DNA of 64,000 nucleotides from an uncultured virus (IMG/VR IMGVR_UViG_3300010938_000025) (IMGVR_UViG_3300010938_000025); one strand, 5' to 3'. Shown: positions 18,614 through 54,394, counted from the first letter of the stretch. A program made the numbers and translations. The notes: generated from the letters alone by a model not told the origin.

Positions 18614-18832
18614 GTGCGAGGTAAACTCCTGTCCGTATCCGACGCGCGTGAGCAGTTAGGCGATTGTCTGACCCGGCTGGGTGCCAGGCCGGAAGAAGCG
18701 ATTGTCATCATCCGGCGTTCGAGTGTCGCCGGAGCCCTGGTCGGGCCGGAAGTTTGGGAACTGCTCAGTCAGGTTGACCTGGACAATCTGCGCCGGCTCT
18801 TGGCCGGGCTGCCGAAGAATCATGACCGGTAA
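18614..18832 (+). CDS. Phd/YefM antitoxin-like DNA-binding protein
   Basis: LSVSDAREQLGDCL...AIVIIRRSSVAGALVGPEVWE pattern; GAGG RBS, GTG start. Confidence 0.7.
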   Translation: MRGKLLSVSDAREQLGDCLTRLGARPEEAIVIIRRSSVAGALVGPEVWELLSQVDLDNLRRLLAGLPKNHDR

Positions 18833-18983
18833 ACGTCGGTCAGGTGGCTGGCTGCGCCGGCTGCTATGCTATTTCGGCCGACACGAGCCGGAGCTGCACG
18901 TGCGGGCCGACTGGCTCAGGTGTCGGTATTGTCAGCGCCTTTTCAGAGTCAGAACCAGAACACAACATGTTCACCGCTCATAG
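18822..18983 (+). CDS. Small Cys/His protein (DUF1660-like)
   Basis: LLCYFGRH...CRYC. Confidence 0.5.
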   Translation: MTGKRRSGGWLRRLLCYFGRHEPELHVRADWLRCRYCQRLFRVRTRTQHVHRS

Positions 18984-20220
18984 GATCGAGAGTTTTCTGA
19001 ACGCTTATAATGCGCCGGCTGCCGTCCGGCGCATCAGCACCGGGCGGACCGGCGTGTTACGCTACCGGCTCGTCCCTATAGGCACCACCCGCTTTGCCCA
19101 GTTGCGGGCGTTGCAGGCTGATCTGGCCGCTCTGACCCAGGCCCAGAGCGCTCTGGTAGAGCAGACCGCCCAGGGAATTATCCTGACCCTCAATTGCCCC
19201 CGCCAGTTGTCGGCCGATTACGCGAGCCTGGTCAGGTCGATTGCCGAGCTGGACTTCCCGGTTGGGAATGTCTTACTCGGCCTGAACGAGGATGGCCTGC
19301 CGTTCACCCTCAATCTGGCCCATCCCCAGTTTTGCCACGTGGTTGTGGCAGGCCTGCCCGGCTCGGGTAAGACCAATCTGGCCCTGGGGATACTCGGCTC
19401 ATTGGTCTATGGCCGGGCATTGGGTGAGCTGGCCGTGGTGCTGGCCGATCCAAAGTTCAGCCCCACGCTGGGTCTGGCCGGGCTGTCCAGGTTACCGCAC
19501 CTGGTGCGACCGGTGGCGACCGGTATTCGCGCGACGGTCCAGCTCTTGAGCTGGCTGCGCCAGACGGTCGAGCGACGCAAGGTGAATGAGGACTATCCCC
19601 ACCTGGTCGCGTGTATCGACGACCTGGCCGCTGTCCTGGCCAACGGGGGGCGCGAGGTCGTAAACGATCTGGCCTATATTGCCGGCCTGGGACGCGAAAA
19701 AGGCGTGCATCTGATTCTGATCACGCAAACACTGCACTATAGCAGCGTCCCCAAGTCAATCGTGGATAATATCCCGGTGCGCATTGTCGGACGTGTAGGT
19801 AGTTCCGTAGCCGGTAGCGTTAACGCCGGCATGGGCGGAACGTTGAGTCACAAGCTGGGTAGACACCAGTTTAACGTGATCGTCGGTGATACGCATTTGC
19901 TATTCAGCATCGGGGTCACGCCGGAAAGTATTCTGAGCCTGATCCCGCCGCCGGCTTTACGAACTGATGAGTACCTGACCGCATCGGCCCAAGACGAGAT
20001 CGACTTTCCGGAGAGCCTCAACCCGTTGGATGTGGTCCGCCCCCTCTGGCAGCAGGCCGGTTGCCAGGAGGTGCGCGGCCTGAAGGCCGAGATGGCCAGC
20101 GCGCTGTGGGGTGACCGGTACTACGGGGGCAACCGGGCCAACATTTTGAACAATCTGATCGGACAACTCCGCCGGGAAACCGAGCCCGCCGGTGGCCTGC
20201 GGTTGGTTAGAGGAGGCTGA
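18967..20220 (+). CDS. FtsK/SpoIIIE-family P-loop ATPase (DNA translocase-like)
   Basis: HVVVAGLPGSGKT, LADPK, CIDDL, GREKGVHLILITQ. Confidence 0.88.
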   Translation: MFTAHRIESFLNAYNAPAAVRRISTGRTGVLRYRLVPIGTTRFAQLRALQADLAALTQAQSALVEQTAQGIILTLNCPRQLSADYASLVRSIAELDFPVGNVLLGLNEDGLPFTLNLAHPQFCHVVVAGLPGSGKTNLALGILGSLVYGRALGELAVVLADPKFSPTLGLAGLSRLPHLVRPVATGIRATVQLLSWLRQTVERRKVNEDYPHLVACIDDLAAVLANGGREVVNDLAYIAGLGREKGVHLILITQTLHYSSVPKSIVDNIPVRIVGRVGSSVAGSVNAGMGGTLSHKLGRHQFNVIVGDTHLLFSIGVTPESILSLIPPPALRTDEYLTASAQDEIDFPESLNPLDVVRPLWQQAGCQEVRGLKAEMASALWGDRYYGGNRANILNNLIGQLRRETEPAGGLRLVRGG

Positions 20221-29286: not shown

Positions 29287-29613
29287 TCAGGTGTATCGGT
29301 ACAGATACAGGTTTAGAATGGCCAGGGCGATGGTCCAGGCCGTATCCAGGATGGTCCGGCTGGCGTAGACAGGCTGCAACAGGCCTGGGATACCCGGCGT
29401 CATGAGGGTGGCGATGTCTATCATCAGGTTGGCCAGGGCGCCCATGCAGAGCACGATGGCGGCCAGTTCCAGTGACGTACTCCAGCGGTGTGACCGGGGG
29501 GCTAAGGTGAGACCCGGTCGATAGGCTGCCAGCATGGTAATCATGGCCGCCATCAGGCCGGAAGTATGGATCGAGAAACTGGCATAGGTTAACAGGTTAA
29601 GAGTCTGAGTCAT
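29287..29613 (-). CDS. Membrane protein (3 TM)
   Basis: Hydrophobic helices. Confidence 0.65.
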   Translation of the reverse strand: MTQTLNLLTYASFSIHTSGLMAAMITMLAAYRPGLTLAPRSHRWSTSLELAAIVLCMGALANLMIDIATLMTPGIPGLLQPVYASRTILDTAWTIALAILNLYLYRYT

Positions 29614-29866
29614 GTTTGCCTCCGAGGCGTTCCCAAAATCTGGTTCTGTATGTCAGGTAGCCGGTGATGATGGTGCCGTTGAAGGTGAAGAAAATGGTCA
29701 ACACATTCACGGCATGGGTGGCGTTAGGGAAGACCACCGGCAGTACGATGGCCACCAGGCTGAGGAAGATACCGGACAACATCATGACCGCGACGGAGCG
29801 GGCCAGGAGAATTTCGATTGAATTTTTTGACCGGTCGTGATTGCGGTCGTGGTGTGTTCTCGACAT
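29597..29866 (-). CDS. Membrane protein (2 TM)
   Basis: Hydrophobic helices. Confidence 0.65.
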   Translation of the reverse strand: MSRTHHDRNHDRSKNSIEILLARSVAVMMLSGIFLSLVAIVLPVVFPNATHAVNVLTIFFTFNGTIITGYLTYRTRFWERLGGKHDSDS

Positions 29867-29869
29867 AAT

Positions 29870-30232
29870 CTATCCTACAATAACGACTTCACACGTATAG
29901 CGGCGGACCGGGTCAGAGCTCCAGGAGGCCTGGCCGCGTCGGCGTTCTGGGGTCAGGGTTACGATTCTGACCGTGCCCGACCAGCCCAGGTCGTCGGTCA
30001 GGGTGAAGCTACTCCCACTGGCCTGCAGGGAGAGGAGCTGAGCCCACAGGGTGTTACTGGCAGTCACGCCGCCGAACCGCCGGCGGGCGGTATAGCCGCC
30101 GGACTGAATCACGGGCGTATTCGAGCCGATCTCGGCCTGTTCGCTGATCCGTTCGACGTAGAAGATACCGGTGTCGCTTTCCGGGTTGACGTCGAATGCG
30201 ACTCCGGCGGCCGTCCACTTAGTCACCGACAT
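29870..30232 (-). CDS. Putative distal tail/tube-initiator-like protein
   Basis: Small beta protein between tape measure and hub; inferred from synteny. Confidence 0.55.
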   Translation of the reverse strand: MSVTKWTAAGVAFDVNPESDTGIFYVERISEQAEIGSNTPVIQSGGYTARRRFGGVTASNTLWAQLLSLQASGSSFTLTDDLGWSGTVRIVTLTPERRRGQASWSSDPVRRYTCEVVIVG

Positions 30233-30245
30233 ACTCAGACCTCAC

Positions 30246-30274
30246 TTGACCGGGTCGGCGTGGCGTGCTATAAT
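30246..30274 (+). promoter_or_regulatory. Sigma70-type promoter of the recombinase
   Basis: TTGACC-17 bp-TATAAT with extended TG. Confidence 0.8.
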
Positions 30275-30307
30275 TAGCTTCGTACAATCTATCTTGTACG
30301 AAGCTAA
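30274..30307. other. loxP-like 34-bp recombination site (13-8-13)
   Basis: TTAGCTTCGTACA-ATCTATCT-TGTACGAAGCTAA; perfect inverted arms; 14 bp upstream of the recombinase ATG. Confidence 0.85.
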
Positions 30308-30321
30308 ATGAGGACCCGAAA

Positions 30322-31356
30322 ATGACCATGACCATCGCCGATGCATTCGCTGCCTACTTCCGCCATCTCAAACACGTCCGCGCTCTGAGCGAACAAACCC
30401 TCAAAGCTTACCGCACCCCGGTTAATCACCTCGTCACGTTCTTATCCGTTCAGGGGTTGACCCCAGATTCGACACCGGTTGAGTCCATTTCGACGACGCT
30501 CATCATCGAGTTCCTGGCCTGGCTCGACGAACACCTGCAAAAACGCTCCGACCGCAGCGGTGCCCTCAAAACCCGACGTGTCTACCGCACCGCCATCGCC
30601 GGCCTCTTGAACTTCCTGGTCGTCGAATCACAACTCCTCCCCTGTTCGGTCGAAAATTACGATAGGTTATGTAAAATAATTCTGAGGGGCCTCAGAACCC
30701 CCGCCGCTCAGGCCGTATCGCCTGAGCGACTGCCGACCGATGAAATCGTCAGCCTGCTGCGTGCGACCGTCCAGCAGCCACCCGAACCGCCGGCCGATGC
30801 CACGCCGCACCTGATCCACCTGCAGCACCTGCGCCACCTGCGCGACGTCGCCATTTTCGAGACCCTGGTCAGCTCCGGCCTGCGGGTGGGTGAACTGGTC
30901 GGCCTGCGGCGTGGCAGGTTGCTGTATACCGAGATGGGTGCCATCGTCACCGGCAAGGGCGGTAAAACCCGCGAAGTGCTCCTGTCCCCCACCGCGTGGG
31001 CGGCTATCCAGGCTTACCTGTCTGCGCGCGACGATAGCCCAACTGCATCTTTAGCCGACCTGCCGGTCTTTGCCCGACACGACCGCAGCTCCGGCGACAT
31101 CCCCAAACCCATGACGACCCGCGCAGTCCAGTACATCTTCTACGATCTGGCCCGGCGTGCCCATATCCAGGAACGTTTTCACCTGACGCCCCACACCCTG
31201 CGCCATTTCTTCGCCACCACCTTCCTGAGCAAAACGGGTGATCTGGCCCTCACCCAATACGCACTGGGACATGCCTCACCTACGACCACCCGAGTGTATG
31301 CGCAGACCAGGCGAGAAGACTATCAGCGCGCCCATCGCCGGGTCTTTGAAGCCTAA
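30322..31356 (+). CDS. Tyrosine recombinase (XerC/D-like integrase family)
   Basis: SGLRVGEL, GKGGKTR, PHTLRHFFAT, LGHAS, TRVY catalytic set; N-terminal SAM-like domain. Confidence 0.95.
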   Translation: MTMTIADAFAAYFRHLKHVRALSEQTLKAYRTPVNHLVTFLSVQGLTPDSTPVESISTTLIIEFLAWLDEHLQKRSDRSGALKTRRVYRTAIAGLLNFLVVESQLLPCSVENYDRLCKIILRGLRTPAAQAVSPERLPTDEIVSLLRATVQQPPEPPADATPHLIHLQHLRHLRDVAIFETLVSSGLRVGELVGLRRGRLLYTEMGAIVTGKGGKTREVLLSPTAWAAIQAYLSARDDSPTASLADLPVFARHDRSSGDIPKPMTTRAVQYIFYDLARRAHIQERFHLTPHTLRHFFATTFLSKTGDLALTQYALGHASPTTTRVYAQTRREDYQRAHRRVFEA

Positions 31357-34300
31357 GCTACAACCCCAGGTACCCCTCCGATGATAACCCCACTGGCCTG
31401 CACACCGGCGCCGACCAGACCTTCGACCCGCCGCACCACGGCCGGTCGGCCATCAATGTAAATCCGGATATCCTGGGGTGATGTCGTCCCGCCACCCTGC
31501 TGCAGGCTGAGCAAAATGTCGTTCAAAACATTCAGCACCGCCTCGCCGGTGTCGCGCTGGACCGGAGCCTGCGGCTGGACCGGCGCCGGTTGCCGGTCGG
31601 TCCAGGCATACAGCGGCAGTTGTGACTGAGGGATGATGAGCTCGTGCTCTCGCTCAGCTCCCCAGAACCACCGCCCACCTGTACCCGGAATGTGCGTCAG
31701 CCAGCCACCTGCCTGCGCAAACGGCACCGGACCGCGGCCGGGTGGACGACGTGGCTCATTGCTGCCATCGCCACCGTCTCCCCCATCCCCTCCGGGCCCT
31801 GGCGCCGGGCCTGGACCGGGACTGCCTGGCGTGCCAACGTCGGTCGGTATCCGGATACTGGAAATCGATCTGAGTGTGCCGGCCGCCGCGGCCGCGTTTT
31901 CGCTCAGCGTATGGAGCGCCAGCATGGCCCGGAGTGAGGTCATAGACATGGCATAGGTCGAAGTCGAAGCCTCACGGGCGCTCTCGTCCAGACGCTCAAG
32001 ATTCTTCCCCTGCGCCTGATCGGTTGCCACCGGCGCCGTGTAAGGGAAACCCAAATCACGCACGGCCTGGGCCAGGTACGGCGTCGGGTCGATGGGCCTG
32101 TCTGTCTCTGCCTGGCGGACCTCAAAATGCAGGTGCGGCCCGGTCGCCCGACCGGTGCTGCCTACCAGGCCGATCTGTTGACCGGCAGCCACCTGCTGCC
32201 CGATCTGGACGACCCGCTGGCTCAAATGGCCGTAGATGTACAGATTGCCGTCATCACCCAGGATGACGACGTTGGTGCCGTAACCGCCTGCCTTGGGCGA
32301 CATGACCCGCCCGCCGACTGCAGCCACGACTTCGGCTCCCAGGGGGGCGCTGATGTCAATCCCGGTGTGCAATCCGCTCAGGCCGTATTGAGCCATGTAA
32401 GCCGGATACGGCTGCCCATATCCCAGACTGATGCGTTCGTGGCCTGGTGTCGGCCAGACCACCTGACCGGCATTTATTTGGGCCTGCCACTCGGCATAAG
32501 TCGGGAAGTTCGGCTGATAGCCGTGTGAAGCGCGCGCCGCAAAAGCGTACTCCTGCCTGAGTCGCTGTTCACGCTCCGAGAGTTGCGGGGCCAATTCGCC
32601 CGAACCGGTGAGCTGGCCGAAGTTCCGCACGTAGTCGCCAAAGGCGTTCACGTGCAGGCCAAAGCTACCCACCCCATTTATAAACGGGGCATCACGTTCG
32701 GCATAATACTCCTCGGCCGAGCCGGGTGGATAGGGCCCCAACATCAGCGTCGGTAATGGGGTGCCGGGTCCGATGGGCGCCTGGACCGCACCCGGCTGGA
32801 GTGCATCCAGCGGCCAGTCGATCCGACCGTTCTGGCCCACACCGATTCGCCCGGCCGTCACCGATGACAACGGCACCATCAGACCGCCTGGCACCTCCGG
32901 GAGATTGAACATCCCCTCGACGAACCGCTTCTGCCGCTCGTTCATCTCTTCGGTGGCTTTCTGGATGGCTTCGTTTGAGGCCCGGATGCGCACAAGCTGC
33001 ACCCCCTGGGCCGTCCAGACCAGAAAAGCCTGTTCCATCTGCCGGTAAAAGACGCCGTTCGACTCAAAGAAACGCTCCCACTGCTGAACCCGCGGCATGA
33101 ACTGGCCAAACAGGAACTCCTGATTCATGGGCCGGTCTCCCAGTCTGGCCTCGCGGACCGTCGGATGGAACATCTCCTCGGCGCGCTGCTGGGCTCTGGT
33201 CAGTGCATTGTCCAGGTCAATGCCCAACTTCAGCGCCAGACCGTCTGCATCTCGCACCCAGGTCGCCGTGCTCTGGATAATATCCATCCACTCCCGGTCG
33301 ATCTCGTTGCGCTCTTTGCCGACGGCAATGTTGGCGGCATAGAATGCCTGTCGCAGCTCCTCGGTGCTGATCAGACTGAGCGACTCAAGCCGGTTAACTT
33401 CGTCTCGCCCGACCAGGCGGGCATCGACCACCCGCGTTGGCGCCGGAATGCGGGCCGCGCGTGTGTTCTCGGCAATGTCTCGCAGGGCTTCGTTGGCAAT
33501 CCGCTGGTTCAGGGTAATGGCACTGTAGCCCTCTTTGTGCAAAACCAGCATGGCCCGCGTATCTTCATGGGGCGCATAGGCCGTGCCAATAACCCGCCCC
33601 GACTGGTCGATGAGTGGCAGACCCTCGGTGGCTCTGGCCTCCAGCTCCCGGTAGCGGGCCAGAAAGGCGTTCATGTCCACCTGACGCAGGTCTAAGGTCG
33701 CGTAGCCGGTGGGCAAAACCAACGTAGGCGCAACCTGGGCCGGCGGGCCGGCGGTGGGTGTACCCGGTGCGCCGGCGGCGCGTAATGTCGCCGTGCGTTG
33801 CATGCGGCTGCTCTCGATGTCAAGCCACTGGTCGGCCTGAGCCGTTGAGGGCGGCATATAGGCGTATGGCCACAGGTTGAACATGCCGCTGGCGAGTGCA
33901 TCCAGCGCGCCGCTCAGGAACCGCACCGACTCTCTGACCGGCGTTGACCCACCCAAAGCGGCCGTGAATCTTGACCAGGCCGCGTGCAGTTCTTCTATGC
34001 TCCCGTAGGTGGTCCCGCGCTGATCGACGAACATGGTCTTGAAGGTGATGTTGATCGGCCGTTCCCACTCGGTGCGGTGGGTCGCAAAGAAGGTTGCAAT
34101 CTCTTCCAGCATCAGGCGCCCCTGGAGTGACCTGGCGCCGCTCAGTTCGGCCAGCAACCCTTCATAGGTCGCGCGGGTGATTTTCCCCTGCTCGTTTAAG
34201 GCGATGACGTCGTTCAAAATATCTATGAACGGACGTCGCTCCAGTTCGCCGGTCGGGGTTCTCTGGAAAACGGGTATACCCGCCCCAAACAGCGCCTGTT

Positions 34301-36374
34301 GGGCTTCTGGGGCGCGGTAGATTCGCTCTGACTGCCGTAGCGCCTGTACCACCCGCTCAGGCAGTTCGCCGGTGGCCAGCGTGCCCAGGCTGATCATGCG
34401 CGCGACCTGCTCAAAGGTCATGCCCAACTCACGGCCTAACGGCACAAACTGGTCGATGACCCGTATGTATTCCTCGAAGTTACCCGTGCCCCGGATGGTC
34501 GCCTGGGCGGCAATGTCCATTGCCTCGGCCAGGCTGATGTGCTCCTCGCGCAGTTGCCGCTCCAAAGCGATGAGCTGCCGCTCGGCCTCCTGCATGGGAA
34601 TGCCCGTCAGGAACGAGACCTGGCCGGCAATCTCGGCATAGGCCGTGGCTTCCGGCGTCAGGCCCCGCTCGGCTCTGATGGCCGTCGTGAGGGCTGCGGC
34701 CACCTCCGGCATGGGCTGCATGGTCGCTTCCGAAACGGCCCGGAGTTGGGCGATATAGCCCTCGGCTTTGGCACCGGTCGCCGATAGAATCTCACCGAAC
34801 CGGACGAGCTCGCGTTCAAGCGCAATGTGCGTTGCCAGCCAGTCCTGTACGAAGCCGGTCGCGGCCTCCAAAGTCTTGTAGAACAGAATGGCCTGGGTGA
34901 TCCAGACTACGTGACGGGCAAATGCACTGCTGGCTCTGTCAACGGCTGCGGCCGTGCGTTGATGTTCGACCACAACCCGCTCGCTGGCCGTGCCCTGGTC
35001 GAGCACGCGCCGGGTGACCGTCTCGAGCAGTTCACCCTGTTCGTTGTAGGCTTTGGTCACCTCGCCGATGGCCTGGCCGGTCTCGGTTGAGAGCAGCTTG
35101 AATCGCTCCAAAACCGGTATGCCGTTCATCAGGCGTTGGAAGTAGGGCGCGTCTTGTAATATCTCTGGCGGTGGTGGTGGCGCCGGGCGCGGTATATCCA
35201 GCCGGGCGTACAGGTCAATCGGCGGCACATCCCCGATAGATAATACCCGCCCAGGCCGATAAGGCGTATCCGGCCTGAACAGGTTGGCCAACGGGTCGTC
35301 CGGCGCAAACCGCCCTTCGCGGGCCATTTGCTCGCGTGCTTCCCGTCTGGCCTGAACCAGCCTGACCAGTTCCTGCTGCTCCTCGCGCAGGCGTTGGACC
35401 CGCTCAGCCTGTCGGGCGGCCACGCGCGCTGCCTCGGCCTCGGCCTGAGCCTGTTCGGCCGCCATAATCGGCCCGTATTCCTGGCGTAAGGCCCGGGCCA
35501 TTGCCTCTGCCTGAGCCGGGCGGAGGACACCCGGAATCAGGACCTCTTCGCGCGAGCCCGGTTCGCCCACACCGGGTAGAGCAATGCCGGCCGCGGCCGC
35601 ACGTATCTCAAGTTGTCGCCTGGCAATGGCCCGCTCACGGACTGCCTGCTCACGCTCCAGTTCTTCGCGCCGGATACGCTCCTCAAGCTCGCGCCGGGCC
35701 TGTTCTCTGGCCTGAGCTTCGGTGTGGGCCAGATAGGCTTCGACTTCGGCCTGCGAGGCAAACCGCCCGCTGGCCACGTGATGCCAGCGCCCGGAAGCTG
35801 ACTGGCGTAGTTCTGGGACGTGCGTGATGGCTGCGGCGTCTCTGGCGGCCTGGGCGGCCGCCGCTACCATCTGAGCGACCGGCTCGCCCGCCGCAGTCGC
35901 TGCGGATTGGACGACGGTTTGAACGGCCTGAACGGCGGCCGAAGTCATCGCGGTTGGGGCTGCTGTCGGGCCGGCCTGGGCGACGGCCTGGGCCGTAGCG
36001 ACAGGTGACACGGGTATGCCCTGGGCAGCCACCTGAGCTGCCTGGAGCATTTGCTGCGAGACAGGCGCGACGCTACCGACGCTGATGTTGATCGGCGTCT
36101 GCGCAATGTGGGTAACGAGTTGATTGAATTGGGTCGTGGTTGCGGCAATGGCTGCCTGGACCGGCTGCAGGAAGGTGGCCGCATTGGGGGGCGCAGGCAG
36201 GTTGAGCTGGAGTTCTGCTCTGAGGGCTGCCCAGGCACCTAGACTTTTGGCAACCTGCTCGTCCAGTTGCTGTAAGGCCGCGGCCAATGCACCGATTCTG
36301 GCCGCGGCCTCCTCGCTATCGGTCTGGAATGTAATCAGGTAGGTTTCGCCGATGGTCTCGTGTGATTCTGCCAT
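31353..36374 (-). CDS. Tape measure protein with C-terminal M23 peptidase
   Basis: 1673 aa, A/E/R-rich and helical, follows the tail chaperone; HTGIDI, YGHL, GPHLHFEV. Confidence 0.9.
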   Translation of the reverse strand: MAESHETIGETYLITFQTDSEEAAARIGALAAALQQLDEQVAKSLGAWAALRAELQLNLPAPPNAATFLQPVQAAIAATTTQFNQLVTHIAQTPINISVGSVAPVSQQMLQAAQVAAQGIPVSPVATAQAVAQAGPTAAPTAMTSAAVQAVQTVVQSAATAAGEPVAQMVAAAAQAARDAAAITHVPELRQSASGRWHHVASGRFASQAEVEAYLAHTEAQAREQARRELEERIRREELEREQAVRERAIARRQLEIRAAAAGIALPGVGEPGSREEVLIPGVLRPAQAEAMARALRQEYGPIMAAEQAQAEAEAARVAARQAERVQRLREEQQELVRLVQARREAREQMAREGRFAPDDPLANLFRPDTPYRPGRVLSIGDVPPIDLYARLDIPRPAPPPPPEILQDAPYFQRLMNGIPVLERFKLLSTETGQAIGEVTKAYNEQGELLETVTRRVLDQGTASERVVVEHQRTAAAVDRASSAFARHVVWITQAILFYKTLEAATGFVQDWLATHIALERELVRFGEILSATGAKAEGYIAQLRAVSEATMQPMPEVAAALTTAIRAERGLTPEATAYAEIAGQVSFLTGIPMQEAERQLIALERQLREEHISLAEAMDIAAQATIRGTGNFEEYIRVIDQFVPLGRELGMTFEQVARMISLGTLATGELPERVVQALRQSERIYRAPEAQQALFGAGIPVFQRTPTGELERRPFIDILNDVIALNEQGKITRATYEGLLAELSGARSLQGRLMLEEIATFFATHRTEWERPINITFKTMFVDQRGTTYGSIEELHAAWSRFTAALGGSTPVRESVRFLSGALDALASGMFNLWPYAYMPPSTAQADQWLDIESSRMQRTATLRAAGAPGTPTAGPPAQVAPTLVLPTGYATLDLRQVDMNAFLARYRELEARATEGLPLIDQSGRVIGTAYAPHEDTRAMLVLHKEGYSAITLNQRIANEALRDIAENTRAARIPAPTRVVDARLVGRDEVNRLESLSLISTEELRQAFYAANIAVGKERNEIDREWMDIIQSTATWVRDADGLALKLGIDLDNALTRAQQRAEEMFHPTVREARLGDRPMNQEFLFGQFMPRVQQWERFFESNGVFYRQMEQAFLVWTAQGVQLVRIRASNEAIQKATEEMNERQKRFVEGMFNLPEVPGGLMVPLSSVTAGRIGVGQNGRIDWPLDALQPGAVQAPIGPGTPLPTLMLGPYPPGSAEEYYAERDAPFINGVGSFGLHVNAFGDYVRNFGQLTGSGELAPQLSEREQRLRQEYAFAARASHGYQPNFPTYAEWQAQINAGQVVWPTPGHERISLGYGQPYPAYMAQYGLSGLHTGIDISAPLGAEVVAAVGGRVMSPKAGGYGTNVVILGDDGNLYIYGHLSQRVVQIGQQVAAGQQIGLVGSTGRATGPHLHFEVRQAETDRPIDPTPYLAQAVRDLGFPYTAPVATDQAQGKNLERLDESAREASTSTYAMSMTSLRAMLALHTLSENAAAAAGTLRSISSIRIPTDVGTPGSPGPGPAPGPGGDGGDGGDGSNEPRRPPGRGPVPFAQAGGWLTHIPGTGGRWFWGAEREHELIIPQSQLPLYAWTDRQPAPVQPQAPVQRDTGEAVLNVLNDILLSLQQGGGTTSPQDIRIYIDGRPAVVRRVEGLVGAGVQASGVIIGGVPGVVA

Positions 36375-44992: not shown

Positions 44993-45189
44993 ACCGGTTG
45001 CGGGAGTCGTTTGAGGTATCGCTCCCACGAATAGTTTTTGAGGACCAGTTCGGCGCTCAGGCCGGTGTTATCCAGGCTGAGTTGCATGAACGTGGGTACG
45101 CCCTCTCGAATGCGCACCAGATAAAGCGTTCCCTCAACCGGCAGGCAGGCGACAAAGCGTACAAAGTTACCGTGAATTCCATTGAGCAT
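44989..45189 (-). CDS. Hypothetical protein
   Basis: Short ORF with GGAG RBS. Confidence 0.45.
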   Translation of the reverse strand: MLNGIHGNFVRFVACLPVEGTLYLVRIREGVPTFMQLSLDNTGLSAELVLKNYSWERYLKRLPQPV

Positions 45190-46156
45190 AGAGGGTCTCC
45201 AGGCGGTCGATTGACTCTGACCAGGTATAACTCTGGACGGTTTCAAAGCCGCCCCGTATCAGTCTTTGGGCCAGTTCGGTATCGTTCAGCAATAACCGGA
45301 TGGCACGCGCAATCAGAGTGTTATCGTACCAGGGCACGACAATGCAGTTATAACCGTCTCGAATGAAATGCTCGTTACCGTGACAGGCGGTGGTAATCAC
45401 CGGGCAGCCGCAGGCCATCGCCTCCAGTATCGGCAGCCCAAATCCCTCGTGCAGCGAAGGTTGTAAGAATACGCTGGCCTGGTTATAGAGTTCGCACAGC
45501 CCGGCGTCGGTCGGTTTGAGAATGTACTGACCGGGCGGCTCCAGCGGCATGGGTTCGACCCCGAACAGTTTGAGAGGCGGTCTGGGGTTGAGCAGACGCC
45601 AGGCGCCTAAGATGGCCGTCTGATTCTTGAGAACCTCACGCCGGCCGATGGCCAGAATACTTCCGTCGCGCGCCTGCTGCGTCGGTCTGAAAACCTCAAG
45701 GTCCACCCACGGTGAGACTATCTCGGCCTGCAGGCCGAAATAGCGCCTGAGCGTCTGCTGTATCCAGGGCGAGGTCGTGACGTAAAACAGGTCAGGCGTA
45801 TAAGTCGCATGGACTTGCAATTGATAGGCCGGGTCCGTCAGTCGATAGCTTGATTCGATGTCTTGCACAAAGTACACGCCCGTGCCACGCCGCAGACAAC
45901 TGCGTCTGACCAGGCTCGCCGTTTCCCACCAGGTGGCGACCTTGAGTCCGTCAGTCTCGTATAGCGCAGCCAGCATTGCCTGGTAGCTCTGGAACGCCAC
46001 CACCGGCACATCCAGGTCAGTCCACTGTGTGTCGCTGAGAGCTATGACGAACAGTTGGCAGTCATGCCCCCGTGCTGCCAGACGGTTGAGGTGCTCAAAC
46101 ACCACTCTGGGGCCGCCGCCAATACCGACCCGTGGCAGGCAGTATGTAATCCTCAA
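45167..46156 (-). CDS. Glycosyltransferase, GT4 (GT-B fold)
   Basis: GGGPRVVFEH, ATWWET, EGFGLPILEAMACG. Confidence 0.92.
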   Translation of the reverse strand: MRITYCLPRVGIGGGPRVVFEHLNRLAARGHDCQLFVIALSDTQWTDLDVPVVAFQSYQAMLAALYETDGLKVATWWETASLVRRSCLRRGTGVYFVQDIESSYRLTDPAYQLQVHATYTPDLFYVTTSPWIQQTLRRYFGLQAEIVSPWVDLEVFRPTQQARDGSILAIGRREVLKNQTAILGAWRLLNPRPPLKLFGVEPMPLEPPGQYILKPTDAGLCELYNQASVFLQPSLHEGFGLPILEAMACGCPVITTACHGNEHFIRDGYNCIVVPWYDNTLIARAIRLLLNDTELAQRLIRGGFETVQSYTWSESIDRLETLYAQWNSR

Positions 46157-46884
46157 TCGTATTCCCCTCGCTCCAGTTTCCGCCTGATATACAGTGCCCG
46201 GCCGCGCAGGGCATCCCCAAGCTGACAGTAATTTCGGGTATGCCAGCGGTGTATGCTCAGGAACTGCCTGAGCTCACAGATACCGAATGGCTGTAGCTTG
46301 AGGTTCAAGTCCCAATCGCTGGCGCCTCCGGCTGCGGGATCACAGCCACCTACCCGGCGGACCAGTTCCAATCGGGTCAGACGCTGTGGGTGGTTGAACA
46401 GGTTTTGCCGCCGGAGTAGCTCAGGCGTGTAGGTCGGAATGCCTTCCGGGCCATATCTACCCCTGACATGGCAACGCCAGTCCGGTTGACCGCGCATGTC
46501 GGTCTCAAGCTGCAGACAATAGACGGTGCCGCACGTGTGGCGATCCAGGTGCCCGGCCAGGACCCGCAGAAAATCTGGATGGGCCAGGTCATCATCTTCC
46601 ATGATCCAGAGGTACCTGCCGCGTGCATACTCCAGGCCATAGTTGATGGCTTCCGGCAGGCCGGCATTGGCCCGCACGAGCCACCTGGCCCGTTCGTCCT
46701 TAAGCGTCAGGTCGCGGCTGGCCGTATAGTCGATCTGCGCGGGTGTACCGTTTTGAATCACAATGAGCTCCCAATCCGACAGACTCTGGGCCAGAATCGA
46801 CTCTACGGCGGCTTCAAAGAACACCGGTCCAGGTCGGTCGTGAGTTGGTAGTAGAATGCTGACCTTGGGAGTTACTTCAGGCAT
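46153..46884 (-). CDS. Glycosyltransferase, GT2 (GT-A fold)
   Basis: VSILLPTHDR, NYGLEYARG, MEDDD, SDWDL. Confidence 0.9.
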   Translation of the reverse strand: MPEVTPKVSILLPTHDRPGPVFFEAAVESILAQSLSDWELIVIQNGTPAQIDYTASRDLTLKDERARWLVRANAGLPEAINYGLEYARGRYLWIMEDDDLAHPDFLRVLAGHLDRHTCGTVYCLQLETDMRGQPDWRCHVRGRYGPEGIPTYTPELLRRQNLFNHPQRLTRLELVRRVGGCDPAAGGASDWDLNLKLQPFGICELRQFLSIHRWHTRNYCQLGDALRGRALYIRRKLERGEYD

Positions 46885-47420
46885 ACAAACTCCATCAGAT
46901 AGAGTTCACGTCGGCGGTAGAAGGCTTTGGCATGTATCGTCCTCAACTTCGCGGCCTCAAGCGCCGCCTCCAGGCGCGGCTGATAATGAAAATACTGTGG
47001 ACCGTCCCAGTTAACGACATGTTCACCGGGTTCGTCGTGACACCACGAGACCATGATCAGGCGCCCGCCGGGTTGTAGAACCCGGTAATACTCCTGGATA
47101 ACCTGTTCTACCTCGGCGATGTGATCGATGGTGGACAGATCGGCGACGGCTGCAAATATCGTGGACTGAAACGGCATACGCCGCAGATCGCCTGTACAAA
47201 ACCAACGCTCTGGATAACGCGCCCTGGCCCTGGCCACCGTCAGTGGATTGATTTCCAGATAGCAGGTACGTTGTGGGTGTAGCCCGCAGTTATCCAGGTG
47301 TTTGAAATCCTCAGGTGCTGCCTCGTTAAAACAGTCCGTCTTGAGTACCAGGCCCGCGGAGTCCGGCAGGTATTCGGTCAACAGGTATCGATAGTGTGCG
47401 TAGACGTCTTCAATGCACAT
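46872..47420 (-). CDS. Class I SAM-dependent methyltransferase
   Basis: GDLRRMPF, STIDH, EYYRVLQPGG. Confidence 0.8.
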   Translation of the reverse strand: MCIEDVYAHYRYLLTEYLPDSAGLVLKTDCFNEAAPEDFKHLDNCGLHPQRTCYLEINPLTVARARARYPERWFCTGDLRRMPFQSTIFAAVADLSTIDHIAEVEQVIQEYYRVLQPGGRLIMVSWCHDEPGEHVVNWDGPQYFHYQPRLEAALEAAKLRTIHAKAFYRRRELYLMEFVCLK

Positions 47421-47970
47421 TGATCAAAAACCAGACGTGCCGCCGACTGTACTCGGCTAAACCCGCAGGCTCTATTCGCCAGTCTGAGTCGGTTCGATAG
47501 CCTGATCGACTCAGGCCGGTCATCATCTCCGACAGGTAGCCCAATTCCATCAGGTCTTCGCACATCTCGACCACGACGTATTGGGGTGTATATCGCGCCG
47601 CAATCTGACATACGGTCTGGTGGAGCGTCTGACTCTCGTACTCGTTCAGACCGGCTGCGAAGCCCAATGCCAGCAGGACGTCAACCGACAGTCCCAATCG
47701 GTCCAGTTCCGACAGGCAATGGCGGTCGTCCAAGACCCAGAAGGTAGTCTGCAGGTTGGGATATGCAGTTCTGGCCAGTTGGATGGCTGCGGCGTCGGTG
47801 TCCAGACCGATATAGTGTTTGAAGACCGGCGGCAGGTAGCGTAAGAGGGGTGCTTTGCCGCAAGCCAGATCGAGTATGACCTTATGCTCGATCTTGCGGG
47901 CCAGATACCCGGCGATCAGGTACAGGCGTCCGTCAAGCCATTTTGTATCCAGGTGTGGCCAGCGATTCAA
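47410..47970 (-). CDS. Class I SAM-dependent methyltransferase
   Basis: ILDLACG, YIGLDTD. Confidence 0.75.
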   Translation of the reverse strand: MNRWPHLDTKWLDGRLYLIAGYLARKIEHKVILDLACGKAPLLRYLPPVFKHYIGLDTDAAAIQLARTAYPNLQTTFWVLDDRHCLSELDRLGLSVDVLLALGFAAGLNEYESQTLHQTVCQIAARYTPQYVVVEMCEDLMELGYLSEMMTGLSRSGYRTDSDWRIEPAGLAEYSRRHVWFLINVH

Positions 47971-47971
47971 G

Positions 47972-48247
47972 TCAATCCGCTCCGTCAGGCTCGATCAGCG
48001 AGAACTCATCGAACGGCTCGTGTGGTCGCCGTTGATTATGGAGCCAATAGGCAAACTCCAATGCGTCTCCCTTGTCCTGCCAGGGGACAATGTTACTTCT
48101 GAAGTTGGACCTCGAGCCGTCCTGACCGATGTACTCGAAAGACTGTCGGTCCATAACACACCAGGCTTCAAAGGATGGCACATAAATCGAACGGCCACCG
48201 TGCAGGTTGGGGATTTCTTTACGCTGACCCGGAACTTTAATGGGCAT
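47972..48247 (-). CDS. Hypothetical protein
   Basis: ORF filling a gap in the operon. Confidence 0.55.
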   Translation of the reverse strand: MPIKVPGQRKEIPNLHGGRSIYVPSFEAWCVMDRQSFEYIGQDGSRSNFRSNIVPWQDKGDALEFAYWLHNQRRPHEPFDEFSLIEPDGAD

Positions 48248-48269
48248 GATGGCAAAGCAACACATCTTC

Positions 48270-48533
48270 TCAACCCCGATCTGTATAACCTGGCGGGCAA
48301 CCCTGCCGTGTGCGCGTGGTACATTCGTAGATGTAGGTGACCTGAAGATAGGTGACCTGCATGGTCGGCGCTTCAGGCCGGGGCACGGCGATCTGAGGCA
48401 TCACCGGCCAGACCTGTTGCGTGCCGCGGACCTCGATCAGGCGTCCGGCAAAGCAGTGTCGGCGTGGACAGGCCTCAGAAATAGTGTTCTCGTATTGAAT
48501 TATCGGTCGCATTGTTGCATCCACGTAATCCAA
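48270..48533 (-). CDS. Hypothetical Cys-containing protein
   Basis: ORF filling a gap; start uncertain. Confidence 0.4.
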   Translation of the reverse strand: MDYVDATMRPIIQYENTISEACPRRHCFAGRLIEVRGTQQVWPVMPQIAVPRPEAPTMQVTYLQVTYIYECTTRTRQGCPPGYTDRG

Positions 48534-49279
48534 TTGCGAACAGCCAATGGGTGTTCGCCCTCGAACGGCTTAAACTCACCCGCCTGGCGTGCTCGTTCAA
48601 ACACGTAGGCGTAGTCTACCTCGCCGCGCTGGTAGCTCTCGACGATTTTGGGATCGGGAAAGCCCAGATCGGTATACAGGGCCTGGAAATCAATTTCTTT
48701 TTTGGCAGCCGCGGCGGCCCGGCCGATCTGGACTTTACCGTAGTGATACACCTGCAGGTATGGCGCATCCAGCACCGGTCCGCGACCATTATCTACCTGA
48801 CAGGCATCCCCCACCATGACCCAGCCGGCGGAGCGTCGCCAGATACGGCGGGCCTGCTGGTAGACGAACGGGAATGTCGTCTTGAAGTCCACCACAAAAT
48901 GGGTATAGCTGGGACGAATGGCGGTTGCACCCATGGCCTCGGCCGTCTGGAGGGCTTCTTCAAACAGTCCGTATGAGGTGTGATGGATGACTTCATCCAG
49001 ATCGAGCTTCATCAGCCAGTCTGTCCTGGCGTGACCGGCCAGGTAGTTACAAATCTCGGACTGGATGGTGTAGTGTGTGCCCCAGGGATGTCGGAACAGG
49101 CGCAGGTTGTTATAGCGGCGGGTCAGATTGATCAGGGTCTGCCAGGTATCATCGCGTGAGTAGCATTCGGCTACCAGGACCTCATCGGCTATGGCGCAGG
49201 CGCTTTCGATGGCCGCTTCAAATGGATAGCGAATCTCGATCAGGTTGTACCCGAAACAGATGACAGATAATGGAATCAT
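48500..49279 (-). CDS. Glycosyltransferase, GT2
   Basis: ADEVLVAECYSRDDT, WLMKLDLDE, VYHYG. Confidence 0.85.
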   Translation of the reverse strand: MIPLSVICFGYNLIEIRYPFEAAIESACAIADEVLVAECYSRDDTWQTLINLTRRYNNLRLFRHPWGTHYTIQSEICNYLAGHARTDWLMKLDLDEVIHHTSYGLFEEALQTAEAMGATAIRPSYTHFVVDFKTTFPFVYQQARRIWRRSAGWVMVGDACQVDNGRGPVLDAPYLQVYHYGKVQIGRAAAAAKKEIDFQALYTDLGFPDPKIVESYQRGEVDYAYVFERARQAGEFKPFEGEHPLAVRNWITWMQQCDR

Positions 49280-50064
49280 CGGTATAGTTTGCTCCAGCCA
49301 TTGCGCCTGGCGTCATCTAAGGTCACGACGTAGGTTCTCAAAGGGTCAGGCAGAGGCGCAATGGGATACGTGCTGTGTTTGGCCCGCACGTAACGCTCAG
49401 GCGCACCCGGCGGAATGCCCCGCTCGGTCATCTCGCGGGCCCAACGTTTCAGTCGCTCGCCCCGCTGTCGCAGGGAGTCATCTGTCCCCAACAGGCTACA
49501 CTCGAAAATGCACACTTCAGGACAGATCGCCTTGTCGATTCGGGTGCGAGTGTAGGCCAGTTGAGTCTTAACCGGCCCGGCAGCGATGGCTTCGGGTTGT
49601 TCGTGCGCCAGGCCCACATAGCGGATACCGACGTTTTTCAACATCCGGGTACTGACGCCGGTGCTGGATCGGACGCAATAGTGCCACATGTCCTGACGCA
49701 TATATTTCACCGGGAAGTCCCAAACGTCGTGCGCGTCAAAATAACCCTGGTCCAGGAGCCAGACGAAGTTACCCGATATGGCCATGTCGGCATCCAGGTT
49801 CAGGACGAAATCACCGCTGGCCAGCTCAAGCCCCCGGTTACGTTGGTCAGCCCAATTGAGCATGGTGTGCCGGACCCACACCAACGGCAGGCCGAACTCT
49901 TCTGCCAGGTCGGTCGCCACCTGACGCGAGTTGTCGGTGGAATCGTCGTCTAAGACGATCCACTCTTTCAGGCGCGGGGGTCGAATGGCCGCATAGCTGG
50001 GCACAACCAGCGGTAGCATCTCGGCTTCGTCTTTCAACAAATTCACAATGCTAACGGTTCGCAT
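49276..50064 (-). CDS. Glycosyltransferase, GT2
   Basis: LDDDSTDNS, QRNRGLELASGD, LDADM, GLAHE. Confidence 0.88.
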   Translation of the reverse strand: MRTVSIVNLLKDEAEMLPLVVPSYAAIRPPRLKEWIVLDDDSTDNSRQVATDLAEEFGLPLVWVRHTMLNWADQRNRGLELASGDFVLNLDADMAISGNFVWLLDQGYFDAHDVWDFPVKYMRQDMWHYCVRSSTGVSTRMLKNVGIRYVGLAHEQPEAIAAGPVKTQLAYTRTRIDKAICPEVCIFECSLLGTDDSLRQRGERLKRWAREMTERGIPPGAPERYVRAKHSTYPIAPLPDPLRTYVVTLDDARRNGWSKLYR

Positions 50065-50704
50065 CAACTGACCCCGCTCTGGTAAAGATGGCGGCCAGTA
50101 CCCCCTCGGAATCGTAAATGGCCTGACCCTGCACAGGCCGGGTATAGGTATACCCGGCCTGTGCAAGCAACGTGCACCACCAGGTCTTGGGATGACATTG
50201 GATGTGGGTCGGATCGTTGCGGCTGACTGGCAGTACGAATGTCTCACCCTCCTGCCTGGACACAGGCAACCTGACCACGAGGTGTTTGGCTGTGACAATC
50301 GAAAGGATGTTATCCAGCTCGCCGTCAGGGATGTGCTCAAGTACATCCAGGAGTAACAACCAGTCGGCTGCGCGCTCCAATAACGACCAGTTGAGGTACT
50401 GCAGGACCTCAGGCGACAGTCCGTAGCGTGTACGGCCGTAATTGATGGCCCAAACACTGATGTCCGTGCCGTATACAGACTGTAGACCAAGCCGGCGCAG
50501 CGCGGCGACCAGTCCACCGGTACCACAGCCGAAGTCGATAACGGTCTGGTGAGATTCGATGCCCTGGGCCAACAGGTCGCGGGCCAGTTGCTCGAACTTA
50601 CGGTCCAGGTAGTTGGCGTAATTGCCGGTCTGATAATAGGCTTGGGTGAAGTGTCTGGTCAGGTTCGGAGTCTGAGCATATTCGTTTGCCAGTCGCCAAT
50701 GCAT
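50051..50704 (-). CDS. Class I SAM-dependent methyltransferase
   Basis: VIDFGCGTG, GTDIS, DVLEHI, DPTHI. Confidence 0.88.
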   Translation of the reverse strand: MHWRLANEYAQTPNLTRHFTQAYYQTGNYANYLDRKFEQLARDLLAQGIESHQTVIDFGCGTGGLVAALRRLGLQSVYGTDISVWAINYGRTRYGLSPEVLQYLNWSLLERAADWLLLLDVLEHIPDGELDNILSIVTAKHLVVRLPVSRQEGETFVLPVSRNDPTHIQCHPKTWWCTLLAQAGYTYTRPVQGQAIYDSEGVLAAIFTRAGSVDANR

Positions 50705-50706
50705 AT

Positions 50707-50985
50707 TCAGTTTTCCAGGAACAGTTTGTACACGGCGGTTGCAATTCCGAAGATGGCCGGTGTCACCGTGCTGAGCCAGGTCAGGAACTCCGGTGGGTTG
50801 CTGACCGGCGCACCGGCGAGCGCGCCGGTACCGAGCATGGCCACCAGCGCGATCACCAGGGACACGCCCATCGCCAACCAGAGTTTCTGCGTGGACGACC
50901 AATGGGGTTGTTTGAGCAGGTTGATGATAAACGGCGCGACCAACCCGCCCAGCCACATAGCGATCACCAAAGCACTGTTCTCCAT
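50707..50985 (-). CDS. Holin-like membrane protein
   Basis: 92 aa, 3 hydrophobic helices, LLKQPHWSS..K. Confidence 0.6.
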   Translation of the reverse strand: MENSALVIAMWLGGLVAPFIINLLKQPHWSSTQKLWLAMGVSLVIALVAMLGTGALAGAPVSNPPEFLTWLSTVTPAIFGIATAVYKLFLEN

Positions 50986-50997
50986 AATGACCTCCCT

Positions 50998-51945
50998 CTA
51001 CAAAAATGCGGCGTGCTGAACTGGAGTGCACACCTGGTCCAACAAACGGTTTTGAGACGTAAAAAAGCACTTCTCGAAGTGACACTCAAACGGTGCGACG
51101 TCAGCAAAGAAAGTATCTATGTCCTGGATACGGCACATGCGATACTCGGTTGGGAAACGACGGTCTTGCAGGGCCACTCCACTGCAACGGTAGAGCCAGC
51201 CGTCTGAGTTGACATACGGCTTTAGAAAGCTGATGCGACAGGGGACGGTGGGGGTAAGCCCGCGGGCCGCTTTCTGTTGCACAAACGCCTGTGGCACTGC
51301 CACCTGCAGGTCCTCGATTGCGCGGGTCAAAGCTGGCAGTTGCTCAACCGGTGACAGGCAATCTGGCACCAATCTCAGGTAACGCGGATTGTGCCTGCGT
51401 GAGAATGTCTGAACACGGTCGATCACCTGAGGTGTGGTCTGGGAGTTGACCACATACGAGAAGCCCAGAGTGCACGTATCCGGCACCTTTGGGACATCCG
51501 GCTCAAGCCCGAAGTCCAGGCCGGACAGAGAGATACGTATCCAGGTCAGTCTGGCCAGGTCCTGTGGGGTCAGGAACCGGTTCATTTTCAGTCCATTGGT
51601 AATCAGCCCGACCTGAATGTGACGTCGCTCCAGATCGGCCAGCAGTCGTCCCAAATGGGGCCACATGAGCGGCTCGCCGCCGCCGGTCAGGACGACACCT
51701 CGCAGGCGCTGCAGGCGGTGGCTATCCAACAAACATTGGACATCGTCCCAACTCAGGCTCAGACCGGGCCTGTCGCGTACACTACAGAAGGTGCAGGTCA
51801 GGTTACACGTATCCGTTAAGGCCAACTCCAGGCTGACCGGCCACCAGTCGGTTGAGCTGTTGGCGGCCAGATGAAGTCGGTCCAGATTGGCCAACAGTTT
51901 CTGTTCGGTTGATGTAAACAATGTCTCGGCCGATATAGCGTCCAT
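50998..51945 (-). CDS. Radical SAM protein with C-terminal Cys-containing (SPASM/twitch-like) region
   Basis: CNLTCTFC, TGGGEP, ITNG, DGWLYRC. Confidence 0.9.
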   Translation of the reverse strand: MDAISAETLFTSTEQKLLANLDRLHLAANSSTDWWPVSLELALTDTCNLTCTFCSVRDRPGLSLSWDDVQCLLDSHRLQRLRGVVLTGGGEPLMWPHLGRLLADLERRHIQVGLITNGLKMNRFLTPQDLARLTWIRISLSGLDFGLEPDVPKVPDTCTLGFSYVVNSQTTPQVIDRVQTFSRRHNPRYLRLVPDCLSPVEQLPALTRAIEDLQVAVPQAFVQQKAARGLTPTVPCRISFLKPYVNSDGWLYRCSGVALQDRRFPTEYRMCRIQDIDTFFADVAPFECHFEKCFFTSQNRLLDQVCTPVQHAAFL

Positions 51946-51955
51946 TGTGTCTCCA

Positions 51956-53023
51956 TCAGAATAGCCGTTGCTCTACAGCCATCGGTTTCAGGCAATGCGG
52001 CGAGAACCACAGTCGTTCTCGCCCGGCATTCTTGTGAATATGTTGTGGATCGGTAGAAGTTGCGTTATATCCACGCCCGCTGCCGGCTTTACCGTGTACA
52101 CACTCCCAGGAATCCGGCATGTCGTGTTCGCCCTCATACCCGGCCAGGACAATGCGGTATCTTGGATCGTCGCCATGCGCAATGCACCACTCCCGCACGG
52201 CATGTGCCACAGCTAACGAATCGCGCGCGTACAACTCCGGCGTGCGGTCTGCCGCATCTGAGTAAGGCGGATCGAAAAAGATACCGACCGGAGTAGCCCG
52301 ATGAATCGTGGGCGAATGGCCGCACACCCGACTCCAATCCCCACAACAGATTGACACCCGACGTAACCTGTGAGATAAGGCCATCATCCAGGCGGTGATA
52401 TTGGCCAGGGAAATGTCACATTGGCCTGAAAACTCTGTGTCATCCATTTGATGAACCGTCTGTTTATGTATGCCTTGCGCCCCACTTAAACGCACTATGC
52501 GTCTCGTGACGCCTGGCCCGGCACGCCTGAGCCTGATCAACCGCTCGCCATCCGTACTCCAGCCGCCCTGACCGGAACACCACCCGCCGCCGATCCAGCA
52601 GGCTATCCCCCACAGCCACCAGCCGGCGGCCTTGGGATCACACCACTCCGGATCGCCCATCAGACGTGCGGTCAATTCTTCTCTACGGTTTACCAGCCAG
52701 ATGTGCCGGGCCGTCAGATCGCATTCGCTGACAATCCACGAAGCGTGGCGCGCCACTTCTGCCGGTTGCAACTGGATTGCCCGCCAGGTATTGGTCAGCA
52801 GTCCGTCTACATCGTTGACCGTCTCGATCCGCGGTTGACCATCGGCCCAGACGCCGCGCCGCCAATCCCAACCTGGACGTTTCAACAGCACGGCTAAAGA
52901 ACCGGCAAACGGCTCGATGTAATTTTTGACATCGCCCAAACGCGCCCAGACCAGCGGCGCAACCTGCGATTTCCCGCCGAAGTATGGGAAAGGGGCAGTG
53001 CCGTATAATCTACGCCGGCTCAC
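51956..53023 (-). CDS. DNA adenine methyltransferase (D12 class)
   Basis: PFPYFGGKS, EPFAGS, FFDPPY; GTG start inferred from RBS. Confidence 0.88.
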   Translation of the reverse strand: MSRRRLYGTAPFPYFGGKSQVAPLVWARLGDVKNYIEPFAGSLAVLLKRPGWDWRRGVWADGQPRIETVNDVDGLLTNTWRAIQLQPAEVARHASWIVSECDLTARHIWLVNRREELTARLMGDPEWCDPKAAGWWLWGIACWIGGGWCSGQGGWSTDGERLIRLRRAGPGVTRRIVRLSGAQGIHKQTVHQMDDTEFSGQCDISLANITAWMMALSHRLRRVSICCGDWSRVCGHSPTIHRATPVGIFFDPPYSDAADRTPELYARDSLAVAHAVREWCIAHGDDPRYRIVLAGYEGEHDMPDSWECVHGKAGSGRGYNATSTDPQHIHKNAGRERLWFSPHCLKPMAVEQRLF

Positions 53024-54381: not shown

Positions 54382-54394
54382 AATCGGTTATACC

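Follow-up and report, generated by a model that had tools for sequence, protein, structure and literature searches.

A candidate single-recombinase Xer/dif-type module in the tail region of an uncultured tailed phage, with relatives in Anaerolineae

Introduction

Single-recombinase Xer systems, in which one Xer-type tyrosine recombinase is paired with a gene-linked inverted-repeat site with a 6-bp centre, have been described as XerS/difSL in streptococci and lactococci and as XerH/difH in Helicobacter and Campylobacter (PMC2965235, PMC2731167, PMC3325230, PMC5241119, PMC5357621). Archaeal XerA (PDB 5hxy) is a single recombinase acting on a palindromic dif, and the XerL/dif system of the Legionellales is lineage-specific, its site being mimicked on a mobile element, LME-1 (PMC9765430). 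Cre/loxP of phage P1 combines a phage-borne enzyme of about 340 amino acids (aa) with a 34-bp 13-8-13 site near its gene. In this study we describe a comparable locus of an uncultured virus (IMG/VR IMGVR_UViG_3300010938_000025), a tailed phage, in which a tyrosine recombinase gene directly follows a palindromic site (positions 30246 to 31356 of the 64,000-nucleotide stretch that was analysed as a whole, referred to as the window). An initial annotation had presented the locus as a candidate new Cre/lox-type pair. We favour, as probable on balance, the reading that it is a captured and re-targeted single-recombinase Xer/dif module, which would serve the phage in resolution or circularisation and would repress its own gene. 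The pairing of site and enzyme is the firmer part of this reading and we consider it highly likely, while the chances for resolution or circularisation as its use appear to us about even.

With XerS/difSL and XerH/difH the locus shares the single Xer-type recombinase, the inverted repeats around a 6-bp centre and the linkage of site and gene, and the sites of its host family lie at the terminus. With Cre/loxP it shares the phage-borne enzyme of similar length, the 34-bp site near the gene and the expected role in circularisation or dimer resolution. In its predicted mechanism and ancestry it is a single-recombinase Xer/dif module like XerS/difSL, XerH/difH, XerA/dif and XerL/dif, and by analogy its life style would parallel that of Cre/loxP, without kinship to Cre. 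Whereas LME-1 uses the enzyme of its host (PMC9765430), the phage has its own diverged enzyme as well as a diverged site. The closest published parallel in placement is gp50 of the Tyroviruses (Bacillus phages Thrax and Tsamsa, PMC9703825), an Xer-like recombinase of unknown function which, as here, lies in the structural module beside the tape-measure gene and has a perfect 11-6-11 inverted repeat, a putative attP, right beside it. We compare the two by placement. The Tyrovirus site is downstream of the stop codon and its gene was suggested to be co-transcribed with the structural genes, whereas our site precedes its gene, which runs antisense and has a promoter of its own; in sequence the two sites are unrelated (Supplementary Table 10 of PMC9703825), and three recombinases are described there against one in the window (PMC9703825). 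Of the 29 phage records matching our protein, 28 give an organism name, and none of these names is that of a Bacillus phage. The locus is a second, unrelated case, after the Tyroviruses, of an Xer-like recombinase and a palindrome beside a tape-measure gene. To our knowledge, nobody has explained why such a gene sits in a tail module.

The site and its recombinase

The elements of the locus are as follows.

30246..30274, plus strand: sigma-70-like promoter of the recombinase gene (TTGACC, 17-nt spacer, TG-extended TATAAT; 11/12 matches)
30274..30307, no strand assigned: dif-like/lox-like site with perfect 14-bp inverted arms, core GCTTCGTACAA and asymmetric 6-bp centre TCTATC
30310..30314, plus strand: GAGGA ribosome-binding site, 7 nt before the ATG and outside the palindrome, read from the sequence
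30322..31356, plus strand: Xer-type tyrosine recombinase, 344 aa, intact open reading frame (ORF) with a SAM-like core-binding N-terminal domain and a catalytic R-K-H-R-H-Y domain
30233..31352, no strand assigned: the cassette of promoter, site and gene, lying in antisense direction between the tape-measure gene and the tail gene that follows

Read directly from the window, the site is TTAGCTTCGTACAA-TCTATC-TTGTACGAAGCTAA, and a repeat search returned its arms at 30274-30287 and 30294-30307, each of 14 nt, 100% complementary and 6 nt apart. The identical bases can also be read as 13-8-13, that is, as a 34-bp site with 13-bp inverted repeats and an asymmetric 8-bp spacer near the gene. The palindrome reported by the initial annotation, with 13-bp arms that become 14 bp when the spacer is taken as 6 bp, is thus real, and so is its placement between the -10 box and the ATG of an intact tyrosine recombinase, the last base of the -10 box being the first base of the left arm. 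It lies 15 bp before the ATG, in the 89-bp gap between the divergent genes for a 120-aa tail-module protein and the 344-aa recombinase. In 30 first-order Markov simulations of the window the longest arm was 12 nt. The site was said to be present in one copy, which holds within the window: the 13-mer arm occurs with 0 mismatches only at its two arm positions, and with up to 3 mismatches it has 12 matches, 10 of them besides the arms of the site, which is chance level (7.7 expected). With two inverted arms of about 11 bp, a 6-bp centre and its linkage to the gene, the candidate site has the form of an Xer target. A reading as terminator was rejected because no T-run follows the stem, no gene ends there and no terminator-like site was found at the palindrome.

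Three more perfect palindromes with arms of at least 14 nt occur in the window, all with arms longer than any in the 30 simulations. They are a 17-2-17 palindrome within a glycosyltransferase gene (50130-50165), a 15-11-15 palindrome at the end of a DPBB gene, just before the holin gene (54319-54359), and a 14-2-14 palindrome within the amidase gene (54866-54895).

The protein matches Phage_integrase (PF00589, 1.5e-23) and the SAM-like N-terminal domain PF02899 in Pfam. R188, K212, H291, R294, H317 and Y326 are all present and form invariant columns in the family alignment. As a single sequence it matched XerA (5hxy, 1.2e-16), XerD (1a0p, 2.2e-15) and XerH (7.6e-07) in PDB, and a profile of 32 family sequences again placed XerA best (3.3e-25). 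A Cre chain was absent from the matches both for the single sequence at E<=0.01 and for the family profile at E<=10 (15 matches). The NCBIfam equivalog cut-offs were all missed by far (136 bits against 335 for XerC, 133 against 330 for XerD, 131.5 against 220 for XerA and 85 against 267 for XerS). To judge from these matches, the protein is Xer-like yet lies outside every named curated Xer family. XerA, its best solved relative by sequence, differs from it by this equivalog cut-off and by the bacterial or phage origin of our copy; from XerS and XerH it is set apart by its low XerS score, the weak match to XerH, the phage-borne gene and the perfectly symmetric arms.

The annotation had described the protein motifs as XerC/D-like rather than Cre-like, and this was borne out, since the best PDB and NCBIfam matches are all to Xer proteins and Cre was never matched. 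The label of a Cre/lox-type pair does not fit for the same reason: there is no detectable sequence membership in the Cre group even with the profile, and His317 of the LGHAS motif, invariant in the family, stands where Cre has Trp315, a correspondence placed by the motif and without an alignment to Cre. Trp315 is listed among the Cre-type catalytic residues in PMC10250229. The counted similarity to loxP, 10/13 in the arm and 5/8 in the spacer, is correct by hand count against the loxP string quoted in that annotation. It is not special to the phage, however, being a property common to the dif-like sites of an Anaerolineae Xer family described below.

A lambda-type arm-binding N-terminal domain is absent, the core-binding SAM-like and catalytic domains alone filling the 344 aa, and arm-type repeats are absent from the window, where no arm copies beyond chance occur. 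A simple resolvase-type enzyme therefore fits better than a lambda-type integrase. Among the 79 window ORFs scanned, the integrase domain occurs in the recombinase alone and no serine recombinase was seen.

Homologs in Anaerolineae and their sites

The protein search gave 2555 proteins at E<=1e-10 among 8000 scored. One of them (P0001), on a contig of 4166 bp, is 99% identical to the phage recombinase; the other matches listed are 47-51% identical over 92-99% of the length, and the named sources among the matches listed are Anaerolineae, Caldilineae or Chloroflexi. These full-length homologs of about 50% identity appear to constitute a large single-copy family in Anaerolineae (Chloroflexota). 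Full-text literature searches found no description of a single-recombinase Xer/dif system of Anaerolineae, and where Kono 2011 (PMC3025954) treats this phylum, dif is predicted for three Dehalococcoides alone. In one member of the host family (P0020, 502 aa), TIR-type domains (PF01582, PF13676) precede the recombinase.

Scanning one genome per species yielded 61 loci, and the 29 with near-full-length matches were used; left out were L022, whose match is cut by the end of a contig and starts from residue 94, and the distant or partial matches L031-L061. A search for perfect palindromes upstream of the genes found sites with arms resembling the phage arm at two loci, L006 and L027, from which a degenerate motif was derived (CTTCGYAYAA, a 6-bp gap and the reverse complement; threshold 17/20). 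At this threshold the motif is present in 16 of the 29 loci, with 0 occurrences in the reversed sequences and 0 in ten shuffles per locus, so that the check for comparable palindromes upstream of homologs, which had been proposed with the original claim, turned out positive. Of the 16 sites, 13 share one orientation and precede the gene by 32-309 bp, and the other three are at -2022, +1200 and +1592. The sites of the 16 loci have the form ACTTCG(T/C)(C/A)TAA-N6-TTATGCGAAGT; the host-type site is ACTTCGCATAA-N6-TTATGCGAAGT, and the consensus of the aligned host sites is ATTACTTCGTCTAA-N6-TTATGCGAAGTAAAAT. Their centre is always 6 bp and free in sequence, and the asymmetry of the arms, TCTAA versus GCATAA, recurs across taxa. 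An asymmetry kept in this way is the pattern of putative protein-binding half-sites and not of an RNA stem.

Could the host sites be chromosomal dif sites? In a whole-genome pattern scan allowing up to 1 mismatch, two genomes (G002, G003) had one place each, namely the dif-like site beside the gene, and a third (G004) had this site and two 1-mismatch places without the arm motif. In G005 the site beside the gene is outside the scan pattern, and the three places listed for this genome match with 1 mismatch. Two dif-like sites occur in G001. G001-G004 each encode a single strong family member (E 1e-174 to 1e-202), beside the site; their other tyrosine recombinases are distant. The GC (guanine-cytosine) skew flips from plus to minus at the site in 3/3 long host contigs.

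G003:C6, site at 68,929: of the 5-kb bins, 13/13 are positive before the site and 7/7 negative from the site bin; cumulative skew highest at 65 kb
G001:C3, site at 18,727: mean skew +0.031 to the left and -0.037 to the right, consistent
G122:C1 (4.4 Mb), site at 2,104,122: cumulative skew over a 200-kb stretch highest at 2,099,001, 5 kb from the site

Coarse sampling of the last contig gave 7/7 positive values between 0.69 and 2.06 Mb and 8/9 negative values between 2.13 and 3.96 Mb, and was noisy elsewhere. Because the skew switches at the site, the host sites behave as chromosomal dif.

The second site of G001 (L097, G001:C24:45242-50794, at 5002) lies near a contig end beside HTH_17, ParA and ParB genes and could be where the host enzyme resolves multimers of a plasmid or second replicon. 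Three dif-like sites (L098, L099, L100) occur in G276, one of them 128 bp before the gene of a recombinase that shares 40% identity with the phage enzyme and two among ordinary metabolic genes; this genome may be a mixed bin or contain extra modules.

Divergence of the phage arms and protein

At 3/11 positions the phage arm GCTTCGTACAA departs from the host arms, with identical changes on both sides, and the changed positions include a nearly invariant host T (TAA/TTA to CAA/TTG). The protein has diverged unevenly: identity between phage and host is 30% for residues 1-130 and 67% for residues 171-344, compared with 60% and 81% from host to host (71% on average overall). In a quick tree the phage protein and P0001 form a long branch beside the host clade with a support of 86, which is not decisive. 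The arm changes and the diverged N-terminal domain, both read from sequence, fit a change of specificity without proving one. It is possible, though we hold it doubtful, that the phage enzyme is an autonomous single-protein recombinase which no longer recognises the host dif, having been captured and re-targeted by matched arm changes and a remodelled N-terminal domain. If so, the locus would offer a 34-bp tool pair independent of Cre and would show by example how a recombinase and its site co-evolve in specificity.

A separate recombinase family is present in G122 and G362 (321 and 358 aa, 27-28% identical to the phage enzyme), and the palindromes upstream of its genes have arms that match the phage arm at 10/11 positions. 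The G122 palindrome is a perfect 15-6-15 (L096, G122:C1:2099122-2109145, at 4995-5030) with an 85-aa ORF between site and gene; that of G362 is found in L142 (G362:C7) at 5001-5028. The lead to G122 came from a loose pattern, for which we have no other use: it matched 79 of 301 Anaerolineae genomes, mostly by chance, and the backwards control also matches. A match in G228 was rejected as chance, being inside an ORF with no recombinase nearby.

Promoter and leader

Shuffled sequences contained on average 0.5 promoter-like sites, compared with the 11/12 promoter at 30246-30274. A -10-like TAnnnT, often after TG, abuts the left arm in 10 of the 16 host modules as well as in the phage, while it occurs in 4% of random 12-mers from the same loci. 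Since the hexamer is kept beside the arm in host modules and phage alike, promoter, site and gene would travel as one unit, and with the -10 box directly at the site, the start of transcription must fall within it. A recombinase bound there, over the transcription start, would repress its own gene. Of the autorepression put forward in the initial annotation, the overlap of promoter and site is therefore conserved and fits the idea, whereas repression itself is something we infer.

The cassette in its genomic setting

The cassette lies between two genes of the opposite strand.

31353..36374, minus strand: tape-measure protein, 1673 aa, with PhageMin_Tail and Peptidase_M23 domains; its stop overlaps the recombinase stop by 4 nt
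29870..30232, minus strand: the first of the tail genes beyond the cassette; it encodes 120 aa without a family match and diverges from the recombinase gene

In 1 of 401 Anaerolineae genomes (G283:C75) we found a relative syntenic with the structural module, with a head protein 33% identical to that of the phage. Its tape-measure gene (L145 9206-14866) directly overlaps the homolog of window 29870-30232 (L145 14854-15228), and between 10 and 90 kb this contig has neither a tyrosine recombinase (best E 0.43) nor a dif-like site. As the relative is without the cassette, the 1.1-kb cassette is a discrete gain in the phage or a loss in the relative, which is itself a prophage or a phage contig in an Anaerolineae genome. 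In viral contigs we found no close relatives of the recombinase, no relatives of the 120-aa tail gene and 0 matches to the exact arms with any 6-bp centre.

The synteny in G283:C75 spans about 45.9-67.9 kb (L144-L146), from a 661-aa gene via the head, tube and tape-measure genes to a large tail protein, at 25-40% identity. Two small membrane-like ORFs at window 29287-29866 are also missing from it.

Proposed function and alternative explanations

How could the phage make use of such a module? We suppose that a tailed phage of Anaerolineae acquired promoter, site and gene as one unit from a host-type dimer-resolution system, and that the unit was subsequently re-targeted. Each 14-bp arm would be bound by one recombinase monomer. 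Two sites, on a dimeric or terminally redundant phage genome, would then synapse as a homotetramer of the phage enzyme and exchange strands across the 6-bp centre, whose asymmetry would give the site its direction. The likeliest uses would be the resolution of multimers of the phage genome or the circularisation of the replicon, as with Cre/loxP in P1, and the changed arms would keep the phage system apart from the host dif.

Several points weigh against this proposal. The 64-kb window contains one copy of the site, so no pair of substrates is visible, and no ParA, clear partition system or lysogeny genes were found in it, which leaves the plasmid prophage of the initial annotation unsupported. 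The single-Xer systems XerS and XerH need FtsK, and the phage enzyme may not be autonomous. Thirteen of the 29 host loci have no site in the sequence scanned; four of these have less than 510 bp upstream, and in the others the site may be at another place. The scanning motif was derived after two matches, and the controls address chance, not circularity in the choice of motif. Lastly, as RNA the palindrome forms a strong 5'-leader hairpin (-19.5 kcal/mol, z -6.3).

The phage encodes an FtsK/SpoIIIE-like protein of 458 aa (18844-20220, plus strand) that can be aligned with FtsK over the alpha and beta motor domains (PDB 2iuu, 2.2e-15, residues 45-245); the gamma domain, which activates Xer, was not detectable in it. 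The presence of an FtsK-like motor and an Xer-type recombinase in one phage is suggestive. In a bolder version of the reading of an autonomous, re-targeted enzyme, this motor of the phage's own might drive the recombinase.

Could the site instead be the core of an attP? Much as an Xer-exploiting element equipped with a recombinase of its own, the phage would then integrate at a dif or dif-like site of the host by means of its Xer-like enzyme, the tail operon being split and restored on excision. The site is of the dif type, the host-family sites are chromosomal dif, the terminus sites of G122 and G362 have arms 10/11 identical to the phage arm, the recombinase is the sole one seen in the window, and elements that mimic dif are known, such as LME-1 in Legionella (PMC9765430) and filamentous phages of Vibrio (PMC4246890). 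A search for a matching attB, another check proposed at the outset, found the phage arms with the TCTATC/GATAGA centre neither in 401 Anaerolineae genomes, where 3 matched at 2-3 mismatches and with other centres, nor in metagenome contigs; the host is not identified, so this is weak evidence. In the metagenomes, 34 loci, among which were neither the window's own record nor the contig of P0001, fit the pattern of one arm and centre, but all are without a second arm, the partner matching at 0-7 of 14 bases, and we read them as chance. For window 29300-31300 no public sequencing run was listed. The G122 and G362 sites belong to the other recombinase family (27-28% identity) in genomes of lower G+C. 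Moreover, the site is intact with phage genes on both sides, and integration by a simple bidirectional recombinase would be unstable unless controlled. We consider integration unlikely, though it is the main rival of our reading.

The palindrome shares its first base with the end of the -10 box and spans the expected start of transcription. This position and its fold as RNA would also suit a purely regulatory element that is no substrate for recombination, be it a protein-bound operator or a 5' hairpin that stabilises the recombinase mRNA. The host arms speak against it: with TCTAA opposite GCATAA the stem is broken while the half-sites are conserved across taxa, around a centre of 6 bp of free sequence. 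The host sites moreover lie at the skew switch, some of them 1.2-2 kb from the gene or downstream of it, and the phage stem lacks the T-run. An exclusively regulatory role is thus very improbable in our view, although the roles of operator and substrate are not exclusive and can coexist. We also give little credence to the idea that the cassette is a small mobile element whose recombinase inserted its own gene via the site, serving the cassette and not the phage. In favour of it, the cassette is a discrete antisense unit that the syntenic relative does not have, and its borders fall exactly between two genes that overlap there; for a mobile element, however, a site would be expected at each border, while one site alone is present, there is no half-site at the tape-measure side, and none of the collections searched has a second copy.

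A recombinase and target that are paired with comparative support are the hard part in nominating new tools for site-specific recombination; for pairs predicted from palindromes alone, a success of about 50% is given in PMC10250229. With our preferred reading, of a captured and re-targeted Xer/dif module, the phage module would be linked to its likely source, the single-recombinase Xer/dif system of Anaerolineae. The symmetric arm changes between host and phage and the diverged DNA-binding domain might further allow the switching of specificity to be addressed with natural parts.

Other features of the window

Outside the cassette the window is organised in two blocks.

0.4-20 kb, plus strand: replication-type genes (DnaJ-domain, VWA, ParB-like, DnaB, Dam methylase and the FtsK/SpoIIIE-like motor)
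20-63 kb, minus strand: tail proteins, tape measure, tube, major head protein, a glycosyltransferase/methyltransferase block, holin and amidase

The glycosyltransferase/methyltransferase block in the late region (45167-57557, minus strand) comprises at least six glycosyltransferases, two to three SAM methyltransferases, a radical-SAM protein and two Dam-like methylases. It is broken by the lysis genes (DPBB, holin, amidase) and is an unusual load for the structural region of a phage.

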